Origin: Candidatus Aenigmatarchaeota archaeon
Lineage (GTDB): Archaea > Aenigmatarchaeota > Aenigmatarchaeia > CG10238-14 > SCSR01
Direction of reading: 5' to 3'
NCBI GenBank assembly: GCA_038998335.1
Contig: JAVZHQ010000001.1
Location: 384,001 to 448,000 of the forward strand
Length of the DNA stretch: 64,000 nt
Shown in pieces: positions 30,824 to 31,526 of this stretch. The position numbers are program-made. Numbering within the stretch: position 1 is the first letter of the stretch; each line of letters begins with the position of its first letter.

Positions 30824-31526
30824 GCGTTGCTGTAAGGTTGAAATTGCATAGAGTAGCTGGGACTCGCTATTAGGCGCAGGCTTCGGCCGAGGCTGAGAGG
30901 AAAGTGTAACACCAGCCCTTTTCAACCTTACGGCTTACCCGTAAGGGGACAGCGTCAGATGGGCAGTTCGGCTGGGAGTTTAGGAGCTAGAATGAAGAGT
31001 CCCTTAAGTTATGAAAAAATGATTAAGGGCATACGGTCTGAACAGCTCCTAAACCAGCAAGCGGTACGCCCTTGGTAAGAGATCAAGGGCGCCCAAAGCT
31101 CAGCTCATCCGGGTCATGTCAGAAGTTGAAGCTATGATTACACTGCTCCAGAATGATTTAAAGATGAGTATGGAGGTAGCTTATGAGCTTTCATCAACTT
31201 CTGACACCCGAAAGAAATCCGGAGTAGAGTGTAAGCGCAAAAGCTGGGTTGATTGGATCCCGCAAAGCGAGGGATCCAAGGGCGAAAGCCTGGGCTAGCG
31301 ATACATCGGTTCGCCTTAATGGCGGCCGGTGGTATCAGAAAAGCTACCTCGGGGATAATGGGCCCGTGGCCGGTGAAAGCCCACAGCTCAGGGGTTTTCA
31401 TCCCACTCGATAGCGACGAGCGGGTAAATTGACCCGGCGCGTTGGTGCGTCGCTGTCGGCTCCCCCCCTCCTGGCCGTGCAGTAGCGGCCAAGGGTACAG
31501 GTGCCCACTGGTTAAAGGGGGACGTT

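Follow-up and report, generated by a model that had tools for sequence, protein, structure and literature searches.

Short rRNA introns that hold no open reading frame are usually regarded as selfish or inert. To our knowledge, the bulge-helix-bulge (BHB) introns described in archaeal rRNA genes carry either a homing-endonuclease ORF or no recognised function. Box C/D guide RNAs are as well known as BHB introns, and a 2021 review gives the contexts of their archaeal genes as behind their own promoter, downstream of tRNA genes, within tRNA introns, and next to ORFs (PMC7994747). The tRNA intron case is exemplified by euryarchaeal pre-tRNA-Trp, whose intron contains a box C/D RNA (Clouet d'Orval et al. 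2001, cited in PMC7994747). A C/D RNA within an intron of an rRNA gene is not among the contexts given in the consulted parts of that review, and our searches of the literature outside subscription journals returned nothing that combined rRNA introns with C/D RNAs, L7Ae, or K-turns. The novelty claimed for such an arrangement in a preliminary description of the DNA studied here was borne out to that extent.

The window analyzed is a stretch of 64,000 nucleotides from the genome of a hot-spring DPANN archaeon, Candidatus Aenigmatarchaeota, which has a size of 1 Mb and a G+C content of 33%. The comparison covered 118 genomes of the order, all genomes used being metagenome bins, and inserts were counted in 30 23S loci of relatives. 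Genomes are denoted by our own handles, the present one being G000. Judged from its sequence, the insert of 84 nt in the 23S rRNA gene, termed here intron a, is likely a BHB intron in the P-loop whose core is a box C/D sRNA directing methylation of 16S rRNA. Those elements of this reading that sequence could address were all supported. A second insert in the same gene is termed intron b.

Both introns would resemble the tRNA-Trp intron in being BHB introns whose body is a C/D guide RNA, and intron b further resembles it in having its predicted targets in its own host transcript and near the intron. They differ from it in that the host is 23S rRNA and not a tRNA, in that intron a is predicted to target another molecule, 16S rRNA, and in that two such introns occur in one gene, the target of one guide spanning the splice junction of the other intron. 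With free-standing archaeal C/D sRNAs they share the box order, the 12-nt spacers, K-turn- and K-loop-forming potential, a pair of guides aimed at conserved parts of rRNA, and presumably the proteins L7Ae, Nop5, and fibrillarin. Free-standing C/D genes of related genomes are in fact direct homologues of the guides of both intron RNAs. Unlike these, the intron RNAs are without a promoter of their own and would have their ends made by the splicing endonuclease, and the boxes of intron a deviate from the consensus (AUGAAGA, AUGA, AUGAUUA), for which a U-A pair in C'/D' compensates. The canonical hBHBh' form, the position in a conserved functional 23S loop, and the patchy distribution are shared with the archaeal rRNA BHB introns of Thermoproteales, Desulfurococcales, and others, from which intron a differs in apparently carrying a guide RNA. 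As with the intron-encoded snoRNAs of eukaryotes, a guide would come from an intron whose host gene belongs to the translation apparatus, and the guide's supply would follow host transcription; here, however, a protein endonuclease acting at a BHB would replace the spliceosome, the host would be rRNA itself, and release would probably be as a circle rather than by exonucleolytic trimming of a lariat.

Table 1. Features of the rRNA genes and their introns (window positions), with predicted guide targets.
Feature	Position	Strand	Details
SSU (16S) rRNA gene	23647..25193		Rfam
16S BHB intron	24382..24460	+	79 nt; D'-loop-C' module only (CUGAUAAAAGAUGAAGA, 24403-19)
16S target of intron a D' guide	24571..24582	+	predicted methylated U = 24575
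16S target of intron a D guide	24862..24873	+	predicted methylated U = 24866
C/D-like RNA in 23S leader	28410..28468	+	weak; AUGAGUU, 11 nt, CUGA, UAAAAG, AUGAAGA, 12 nt, ACGA
C/D-like RNA directly 5' of 23S processing stem	28513..28578	+	AUGACUU, 12 nt, CUGA, UAAAAG, AUGAAGA, 13 nt, AUGA
23S rRNA gene, host of introns a and b	28614..31875	+	Rfam LSU_rRNA_archaea, 2633 bits, model positions 1-2987
Intron a BHB central helix, 5' strand	30971..30974	+	GCUG, in exon; bulge GG^A next; pairs with 31055-58
P-loop target of intron b D' guide, 5' half	30971..30976	+	rest = 31061-66 once intron a is removed; predicted methylated G = 30975
Intron a, BHB intron with box C/D RNA	30977..31060	+	84 nt; in 23S helix-80 P-loop
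Intron a inner helix (C/D RNA terminal stem), 5' strand	30978..30988	+	11 bp with 31044-54
Intron a box C	30992..30998	+	AUGAAGA
Intron a D' guide	30999..31010	+	GUCCCUUAAGUU
Intron a box D'	31011..31014	+	AUGA
Intron a box C'	31019..31025	+	AUGAUUA; U6 of C' able to pair with A1 of D'
Intron a D guide	31026..31037	+	AGGGCAUACGGU
Intron a box D	31038..31041	+	CUGA
Intron a inner helix (terminal stem), 3' strand	31044..31054	+	
Intron a BHB central helix, 3' strand	31055..31058	+	CAGC, in intron; bulge AA^G next
Intron b, BHB intron with box C/D RNA	31116..31212	+	97 nt
Intron b boxes		+	C 31134-40, D' 31153-56, C' 31164-70, D 31183-86
Intron b guides		+	D' guide 31141-52, D guide 31171-82
23S target of intron b D guide	31341..31352	+	10 Watson-Crick and 1 G-U pairs; predicted methylated U = 31345

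Local alignment to the LSU model placed 86 nt in the helix-80 loop (GCUGGG^GGUAC), where the model expects 2. The BHB that had been claimed to bound this insert proved canonical, with a 4-bp central helix between two 3-nt bulges (GGA and AAG), an 11-bp inner helix, and a 3-bp outer helix. In the five available sequences, all 18 pairs of the motif were retained (100% paired), among them the central helix in 5/5 and an inner helix in which four pairs had changed on both sides. The cuts given by the BHB rule, 30976|30977 and 31060|31061, restore the universal P-loop CUGGGGCGGU, as the Rfam consensus expects. At this site 24 of the 30 loci had no insert, three had one of 83-84 nt, one had a 660-nt insert, and two were ambiguous; the earlier statement that relatives are without exactly these 84 nt thus agrees with absence at the precise point in 24/30 loci. 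Intron a was found at the identical site in 5/118 genomes of the order, representing three genera. It holds no homing-endonuclease ORF, for which 84 nt would be too short. The 660-nt insert, in G037, does contain a LAGLIDADG ORF, which marks the P-loop site as a place where introns come and go.

The complete box C/D layout ascribed to intron a was located element by element: box C, 12 nt, box D', a 4-nt AAAA loop, box C', 12 nt, and box D. The order C, D', C', D and the two 12-nt spacers flanking a short D'-C' loop are those of an archaeal C/D sRNA, and GA is present in all four boxes in this genome, in which two non-Watson-Crick pairs lie between the stem and the K-turn. The Rfam C/D families sR12, sR5, and snoZ266 scored 13-18 bits against intron a, below their gathering scores of 38-43; since the families are species-specific, this comparison carries little weight. 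At a permissive threshold C/D families made up 8 of 10 weak hits, all below gathering, and these were not used as evidence of membership.

The match of both guides to 16S rRNA, also reported previously, was found again, with 11 contiguous Watson-Crick pairs between the D' guide (guide 1) and 24571-82 and 10 between the D guide (guide 2) and 24862-73, the latter rising to 11 in G001. Both pairings include the fifth nucleotide upstream of D or D'. We take U24575 to lie at the 3' end of helix 27, at about E. coli 912, and U24866 to lie in helix 34, at about E. coli 1203. Across the order, the AAGGG matched by the D' guide was present in 52 among 60 matches listed, and the whole 28-nt pattern was exact in 47 among these 60. 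The guide fits AAGGGAA, an order-specific variant of 16S rRNA.

We then considered whether a plain hairpin intron with fortuitous UGA motifs and rRNA-complementary stretches could account for these features. The genome is only 33% G+C, and layouts with four UGA motifs were no commoner in it than in shuffled versions (30 versus 34-48); moreover, the minimum-energy fold of intron a is a hairpin, in which guide 1 pairs over 7 bp with the end of C' and the start of guide 2. When the whole genome was scanned for four-box layouts, five guides nonetheless had at least 10 contiguous rRNA matches versus 17 in 40 shuffled genomes, a shuffle rate of approximately 0.43 per genome or 0.5% of guides, and two such guides in a single candidate lies well beyond what the shuffles gave. 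Together with two findings described below, the pattern of conservation and the occurrence of homologous guides elsewhere in the order, this leaves chance hardly tenable. One of the five scan guides, with an 11-nt match to 16S, belonged to a candidate at C1:265022 on the minus strand; with its poor boxes and its position within a 360-aa ORF, this candidate was taken as chance. The possibility raised previously that the core of intron a is a plain hairpin with a K-loop is also unlikely, since guide 1 is conserved beside different partner guides and D' and C' do not change although the loop between them differs in both length and sequence.

The C/D layout was kept in all five genomes that hold intron a. 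Invariant columns numbered 20/24 in the guides (11/12 in the D' guide) and 11/11 in D' plus C', versus 12/26 in the stems and 0/6 in the loop. Boxes D' and C' were invariant in 5/5, around loops of AAAA, AAAG, GGA, or UUUUUU (3-6 nt). The terminal C/D motif was less well kept than C'/D', with box C reading AUGA in 4/5 genomes and AUGUAGA in G001, and box D reading CUGA in 3/5, CCGA in G104, and CUAA in G015. These alterations of box C or D in three of five genomes would suit a decaying or selfish relic, that is, a C/D RNA that was caught in a BHB intron or moved there and that is still spliced out but has lost its guide function in some or all lineages, and so would the narrow distribution and the classical LAGLIDADG intron at the same site. 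We consider such a relic very unlikely, as three genera share invariant guides and the single guide-edge change, in G001, makes the 16S match longer. In addition, neither guide turned up a second time in this genome in the pattern searches, so that loss of intron a function would abolish both.

The guides of intron a recur in other families, with their register to the D-type box unchanged, in C/D RNAs that are free-standing or lie in tRNA introns. A guide-1-like pattern (CCCUUAAGU, 1-2 nt, D box) gave 17 matches versus 4 for the control, 12 of them outside intron a. Seven of these were inspected (G039, G071, G055, G074, G043, G042, and G107); in all seven the boxes are ordered as in a free-standing C/D RNA, and there is no overlap with an rRNA gene. 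Guide 1 stays conserved where the partner guide is a different one. The guide-2-like pattern gave 10 matches versus none for the control, including C/D RNAs in tRNA introns of G037 and G046 and a free-standing C/D RNA in G042.

The expression data consisted of contigs from two ordinary metatranscriptomes, a type of data in which an 84-nt RNA would be lost. The circular 23S junction 31882->28612 was present in RNA contigs. For intron a, a 179-nt RNA contig was identical to 30807-30976, the alignment ending at 30976 with nine unaligned letters following and no joint listed; DNA contigs cross the exon-intron boundary. No RNA contig in these two data sets covered either 23S intron or a circular intron junction, and RNA depth was 0 at 31014 and 31192 in both runs, to which, given the type of data, no weight is attached. 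The exon junction of intron b, GGGUC|AGAAAUCC, was found as the BHB predicts in loose ends of contigs of two RNA runs. An unsampled intron-less relative could in principle also be the source of this junction, yet the six known loci without intron b all have a loop 2 nt longer.

Intron b occupies the hairpin next after helix 80, where local alignment showed 101 nt versus the 4 expected by the LSU model. It had been described as a 95-nt intron at 31117-31211; the BHB rule and the RNA junction instead give 97 nt at 31116-31212. The preliminary description ascribed a C/D layout to the 84-nt intron and missed that intron b also contains a C/D RNA. Intron b was present in 24/30 loci; it is far more widespread than intron a, and the evidence for it is stronger. 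In 16 aligned sequences the four box cores were invariant or nearly so, and the BHB was 99.4% paired with 9/11 pairs changed on both sides, a value reached by 0/500 shuffles. Free-standing homologues with both guides the same occur in G022, G023, and G042, that of G023 in a genome whose own 23S gene is without the intron.

In the intron b D guide, both the core GAGGUAGCU and the distance to box D are conserved across the family, and the target AAGCUACC was kept in 30/30 loci. The variant D guides GGGGUAGCU and GGGAGUAGCU pair by G-U or with one mismatch, and no clean covariation of this guide with its almost invariant target was found. For the D' guide, exact and two-mismatch searches of the whole genome with its complement gave no match in structural RNAs, and the P-loop target surfaced once G-U pairs were permitted (8 Watson-Crick and 2 G-U pairs in a run of 10). 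The guide covaries with this target, having A in three genomes with P-loop GGGGUGG and G in 14/15 parsed genomes with GGGGCGG. The adjacent 3' exon UCCGGAGUAGAG offers 9 Watson-Crick and 1 G-U pairs, but the guide does not track changes of the exon helix in relatives, and the P-loop is preferred. The predicted methylated residue, G30975, is presumably E. coli G2251 (Gm2251). According to Dennis et al. (2015), C/D-guided methylation of the equivalent of E. coli G2251 is predicted in 3/7 archaea (PMC4644070).

Modules of related form occur elsewhere in the rRNA and tRNA precursors of this genome. The claim that the 16S insert is a 79-nt BHB intron is confirmed by intron-less DNA contigs, from which it is missing exactly, and by its canonical BHB (CCCG/CGGG, bulges GU^A and AA^A). 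The 16S joint 24381->24461 was found in RNA contigs and also in both DNA runs, and therefore reflects intron-less relatives and not splicing. Pairing of the half-module guide of this intron with the adjacent 790-loop exon (9 Watson-Crick and 1 G-U pairs, by eye) was no better than elsewhere in rRNA and remains speculation. Several tRNA introns carry C/D or K-loop modules, some of them D'-loop-C' without the full C/D layout, and the tRNA-Trp intron has a D'-type guide whose register points at C34.

The incomplete D'-loop-C' modules in the 16S and tRNA introns suggest that L7Ae binding alone may be selected. The modules could then aid BHB folding, shield the precursor against heat, or act as a folding chaperone that keeps segments of rRNA in place, with no methylation being directed, and the better preservation of the internal C'/D' over the terminal C/D of intron a would fit such a role. 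We think this unlikely, because it leaves unexplained the 20 invariant guide columns beside drifting stems and loop, the constant register of the guides to the D box in unrelated hosts, and the covariation of an intron b guide with the P-loop. Chaperone pairing is, moreover, compatible with methylation and does not exclude it.

In the mechanism we propose for intron a, the pre-23S transcript folds into the canonical BHB, a structure that sequence and covariation demonstrate. The splicing endonuclease would then cut at the two sites given above, and RtcB would join the exons into the universal P-loop; for these cuts we rely on the BHB rule, the restored sequence, and one weak RNA hint. The genome encodes both the splicing endonuclease EndA (C1:649574-649852) and the ligase RtcB. 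RtcB probably circularizes intron a as well, by analogy with other archaeal BHB introns. L7Ae, Nop5, and fibrillarin, all encoded with scores above Pfam cut-offs, would bind as a complex at the K-turn of C/D and the K-loop of C'/D'. The two 12-nt guides would finally direct 2'-O-methylation in trans at 16S U24575 and U24866, as complementarity, the fifth-nucleotide rule, and conservation suggest. Because these targets are on a different molecule, intron a must act in trans, either after release or from the precursor.

Intron b would work alike on its own host, at P-loop G30975 about 140 nt upstream and at 31341-52 about 130 nt downstream. As its targets are near it in the host gene, intron b, like the tRNA-Trp intron, may work in cis. 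The P-loop target of intron b is split by intron a and therefore exists only after intron a has been spliced out. Together the two introns would couple guide RNA supply to the transcription of rRNA.

If these proposals are right, short ORF-less rRNA introns gain a function, and the hosting of snoRNAs in introns has a prokaryotic version, in a 1-Mb genome where guides are supplied 1:1 with rRNA transcription. The two ribosomal subunits would be linked by a 23S intron modifying 16S rRNA, and an order of events would be imposed, the P-loop target of intron b being made by the splicing of intron a. The occurrence of one guide in three genomic settings within an order would make guide RNA mobility testable. 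In practice, searches for C/D RNAs and annotation of rRNA in DPANN genomes should include rRNA introns.

We tentatively offer a wider proposal, which we hold to be possible though somewhat doubtful: that the C/D guide repertoire of the order resides largely in the pre-23S leader and within rRNA and tRNA introns of the BHB type. Its modules, presumably by BHB cut-and-ligate chemistry on circular guide RNAs, would move among free-standing genes, tRNA introns, and no fewer than three 23S sites. The introns would build an ordered, self-referential maturation circuit in which the 23S transcript supplies 16S guides and intron b directs methylation of its own host to either side of itself, with the universal P-loop G among the targets and within reach only after removal of intron a. 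Were this so, it would provide a living archaeal model for the origin of intron-borne snoRNAs and a functional reason for the persistence of ORF-less rRNA introns. C/D-like RNAs lie in the 23S leader and directly 5' of the 23S processing stem. The best guide match of the one at 28410..28468 is weak, with 9 contiguous pairs to the LSU, and the D guide of the one at 28513..28578 forms 10 contiguous Watson-Crick pairs with 23S rRNA.

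All genomes compared here were metagenome bins (G-numbers; G000 is the genome under study, with L-numbers for loci of the others), and the sequencing runs containing this stretch were hot-spring metagenomes. The G000 assembly comprises 1.0 Mb in 9 contigs with 33% G+C. Its 16S and 23S rRNA genes are separated by three ORFs on the opposite strand, so the two genes are unlinked and do not form one transcription unit. When the sequence was aligned locally with the archaeal LSU model, 86 nt fell in the helix 80 loop, or P-loop (GCUGGG^GGUAC), where 2 were expected, and 101 nt in the hairpin after helix 80, where 4 were expected. 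These inserts are referred to as intron a (window 30977-31060) and intron b, respectively.

Intron a is bounded by a motif of the bulge-helix-bulge (BHB) type. Cuts after the second base of each bulge, between 30976 and 30977 and between 31060 and 31061, give the ligated sequence CUGGGGCGGU, the universal P-loop. In each of the five genomes bearing the intron all 18 helix pairs are formed, and across them four pairs of the inner helix are altered on both sides. The family and order supplied 30 23S loci: no insert was present at this site in 24, three had one of 83-84 nt, one had 660 nt, and two were ambiguous. Five of 118 genomes, belonging to three genera, carried the 84-nt type in an order-wide pattern search, at the P-loop site every time. 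The helices, bulges, restored P-loop and absence from most loci bear out the preliminary description of a BHB intron, here a canonical one. The 660-nt insert (G037, L014 1715-2344) codes for a 209-aa LAGLIDADG homing endonuclease, and the P-loop site is therefore also home to a classical rRNA intron.

Features of the rRNA region and related modules (window positions, or contig positions where marked C1)
Feature	Position	Details
16S rRNA gene	23647-25193	Rfam
16S intron module	24403-24419	CUGAUAAAAGAUGAAGA; inside intron 24382-24460
Three ORFs between 16S and tRNA-Ala/23S	25310-27389	minus strand, opposite to rRNA genes
Tandem C/D-like RNAs, 23S leader	28410-28468, 28513-28578	directly 5' of processing stem; share CUGAUAAAAGAUGAAGA
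23S rRNA gene	28614-31875	Rfam
Intron a, BHB central helix	30971-74 with 31055-58	exon GCUG with intron CAGC
Intron a, BHB bulges		GG^A and AA^G
Intron a, inner helix	30978-88 with 31044-54	11 bp
Intron a, outer helix		3 bp
Intron a, core		C AUGAAGA, 12 nt, D' AUGA, loop AAAA, C' AUGAUUA, 12 nt, D CUGA
Intron b, BHB		CGGG/CCCG; bulges UC^A and AA^A
Intron b, box C	31134-40	AUGAUUA
Intron b, D' guide	31141-52	followed by D' AUGA, loop UUUAAAG
Intron b, box C'	31164-70	AUGAGUA
Intron b, D guide	31171-82
Intron b, box D	31183-86	AUGA
tRNA genes whose introns have complete C/D layouts	C1:281225-281370, C1:504696-504833	introns of 59 and 53 nt
tRNA introns with D'-loop-C' K-loop module	C1:371540-371646, C1:556995-557113, C1:569471-569588, C1:663523-663634, window 21024-21132	31-46 nt

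The preliminary description had further assigned to intron a a full box C/D layout with both guides matching 16S rRNA, and this was upheld: the D' guide forms 11 contiguous Watson-Crick pairs with 16S positions 24571-82, and the D guide 10 with 24862-73. The deviations of its boxes from consensus fit K-turn rules, and the position-6 U of C' can pair with the position-1 A of D'. Layouts with four UGA boxes were scanned throughout the genome and in 40 shuffled genomes for guides with at least 10 rRNA matches. Five such guides were found in G000 versus 17 in the 40 shuffled genomes; of the five, the two 23S introns account for three and the 23S leader for one. The remaining guide, within an ORF, was taken as chance.

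The minimum-energy fold of intron a is a hairpin, and it had been a worry of the preliminary description that the core was a plain one. Across the five genomes, the guides are invariant in 20 of 24 columns and D' plus C' in all 11, with 12 of 26 invariant in the stems and none of 6 in the D'-C' loop, whose length runs from 3 to 6 nt. The most telling point is that each guide is found again at other loci, where its register to a D-type box is unchanged. Guide 1, upstream of D', was searched as CCCUUAAGU plus 1-2 nt and a D box, with 17 matches versus 4 in the control; of the 12 beyond the intron, seven were inspected, and at all seven the boxes are ordered as in a free-standing C/D RNA, with another partner guide. 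The guide 2 pattern GGGCAUACG gave 10 matches versus none, including C/D RNAs in tRNA introns (G037, G046) and one free-standing RNA (G042). A guide kept alongside different partners is not kept for a hairpin, and a plain hairpin is unlikely; the conservation pattern argues for a guide function. The D' guide matches an order-specific 16S variant, AAGGGAA, present in 52 of the 60 matches listed, and in G001 a change in the first D-guide base extends the pairing with that genome's own 16S to 11 bases. The weak point of intron a as a C/D RNA is its imperfect terminal boxes and terminal K-turn: C plus D are invariant in 7 of 11 columns, with C being AUGUAGA in G001 and D being CUAA in G015 and CCGA in G104. 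In the two tRNA-intron C/D RNAs (L057 of G037, partly N, and L058 of G046), the guide is directed toward 16S instead of the host tRNA.

Intron b, which had not been recognized as a C/D RNA, is the stronger case. Its identification as a BHB insert stands, and its ends were revised: the BHB rule gives 31116-31212, or 97 nt, one base wider per side than the 95 nt first reported. The junction GGGUC joined to AGAAAUCC was found as predicted, with loose ends at 31116 and 31213, in contigs of two metatranscriptome runs; no such loose end was seen for either DNA run among the ends listed. An insert of 81-212 nt occupies this site in 24 of the 30 loci, and the loop is two bases longer in the six intron-less loci in hand. 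The BHB is 99.4% paired, with 9 of 11 counted pairs altered on both sides, a result equaled by none of 500 shuffles. Alignment of 16 short forms showed no variation in the AUGA of C, the AUGA of C' or the UGA of D', and box D keeps its UGA in 15. G022, G023 and G042 have free-standing RNAs that carry both guides and also have terminal stems and, upstream, A/T-rich boxes; the 23S of G023 is without intron b.

The D guide core of intron b, GAGGUAGCU, lies constantly one base upstream of box D, and the guide pairs with AAGCUACCUC at 31341-52 through 10 Watson-Crick pairs and one GU pair. The D' guide pairs with GCUGGGGCGGUA of the P-loop through 8 Watson-Crick and two GU pairs, and by the fifth-nucleotide rule its predicted methylation target is G30975, presumably equivalent to E. 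coli G2251, a P-loop Gm that is widely conserved. Where relatives differ in this guide, it is mostly by C/U exchanges facing G that maintain pairing. Guide and P-loop also covary: the facing guide base is A in the three genomes with GGGGUGG, and G in 14 of 15 parsed genomes with GGGGCGG. Dennis et al. 2015 (PMC4644070) predict C/D-guided methylation at the G2251 equivalent in three of seven archaea. In L008 (G015), L013 (G006) and others, further inserts interrupt the exon downstream of intron b at about 124-150 nt, within or just past the D-guide target (after AAAGCUAC), and formation of the target would likewise depend on a further splicing event; those of G012, G056, G028, G019 and G057 lie a few bases beyond.

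Both RNA runs, but neither DNA run, had contigs with a circular 23S junction joining 31882 to 28612, and the rRNA of these contigs matched that of G000 at 95% or more over long stretches. RNA of the introns themselves was not seen among the contigs of the RNA runs. This circular pre-23S junction is the mark of BHB cuts in the 23S processing stem and shows that the BHB cut-and-ligate pathway acts on G000 rRNA or near-identical rRNA. The genome encodes a splicing endonuclease, RtcB, L7Ae, Nop5 and fibrillarin. Two in-frame TAA codons lie within the stretch matched by RtcB (C1:120751-122073).

What is seen for these introns is their structure, their conservation and covariation, the encoded machinery and, in RNA contigs, a single predicted exon junction; release of the intron RNA, RNP assembly and methylation are inferred. 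Intron a would be excised at its BHB, probably circularized, bound by the C/D proteins, and would act in trans on 16S rRNA. Both targets of intron b are at most about 140 nt from its insertion site, and it may thus have its own precursor as substrate, like the tRNA-Trp intron. Since its P-loop target spans the intron a splice junction in G000, methylation there must follow intron a removal.

A 2021 review (PMC7994747) gives as contexts of archaeal C/D genes their own promoters, tRNA introns, and positions next to ORFs or downstream of tRNA genes; rRNA introns are absent from these contexts, consistent with the claimed novelty, in which intron-hosted C/D RNAs were known for tRNA-Trp only. In Lui et al. 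2018 (PMC6009581), rRNA introns figure only as sequence removed before target prediction. We found no paper joining rRNA introns with C/D, L7Ae or K-turn in the full-text literature, a scope outside which subscription journals and supplements fall. We file this arrangement as a putative combination of two known kinds, C/D sRNA and BHB intron, with the combination and the 23S host undescribed.

Related modules occur elsewhere in the rRNA and tRNA genes. There are three copies of the D'-loop-C' motif CUGAUAAAAGAUGAAGA in the rRNA genes: one in the 16S intron and one in each leader RNA. The D guide of the second leader RNA forms 10 contiguous pairs with 23S near GAGACAGUUCGG. No boxes C and D were recognizable in the 16S intron, whose module may be half of a guide or simply an L7Ae site; the 12 nt upstream of it pair imperfectly with the adjoining 790-loop exon. 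In G000, no free-standing C/D RNA emerged convincingly from a strict four-box scan, which can miss degenerate boxes; the two loci with complete layouts were rejected as such, being located in tRNA introns. Five or six further tRNA introns of G000 have K-loop modules. Among these is that of tRNA-Trp, in which the sequence upstream of D' pairs with the anticodon stem-loop and the fifth-nucleotide rule points to C34. At a third 23S site (equivalent to about window 29828), L035 of G059 has an 83-nt insert in which the four boxes of a C/D RNA are laid out and the CUGAUAAAAGAUGAAGA module is present; one guide of this insert forms 9 contiguous pairs with 23S. The peptidyl-transferase ring at about 31353-31361, read by eye, is GGGGAUAAUGGG in G000 as in most of its relatives, in place of the GGGGAUAAC of most organisms; this variant would place U at what is presumably E. 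coli C2452.
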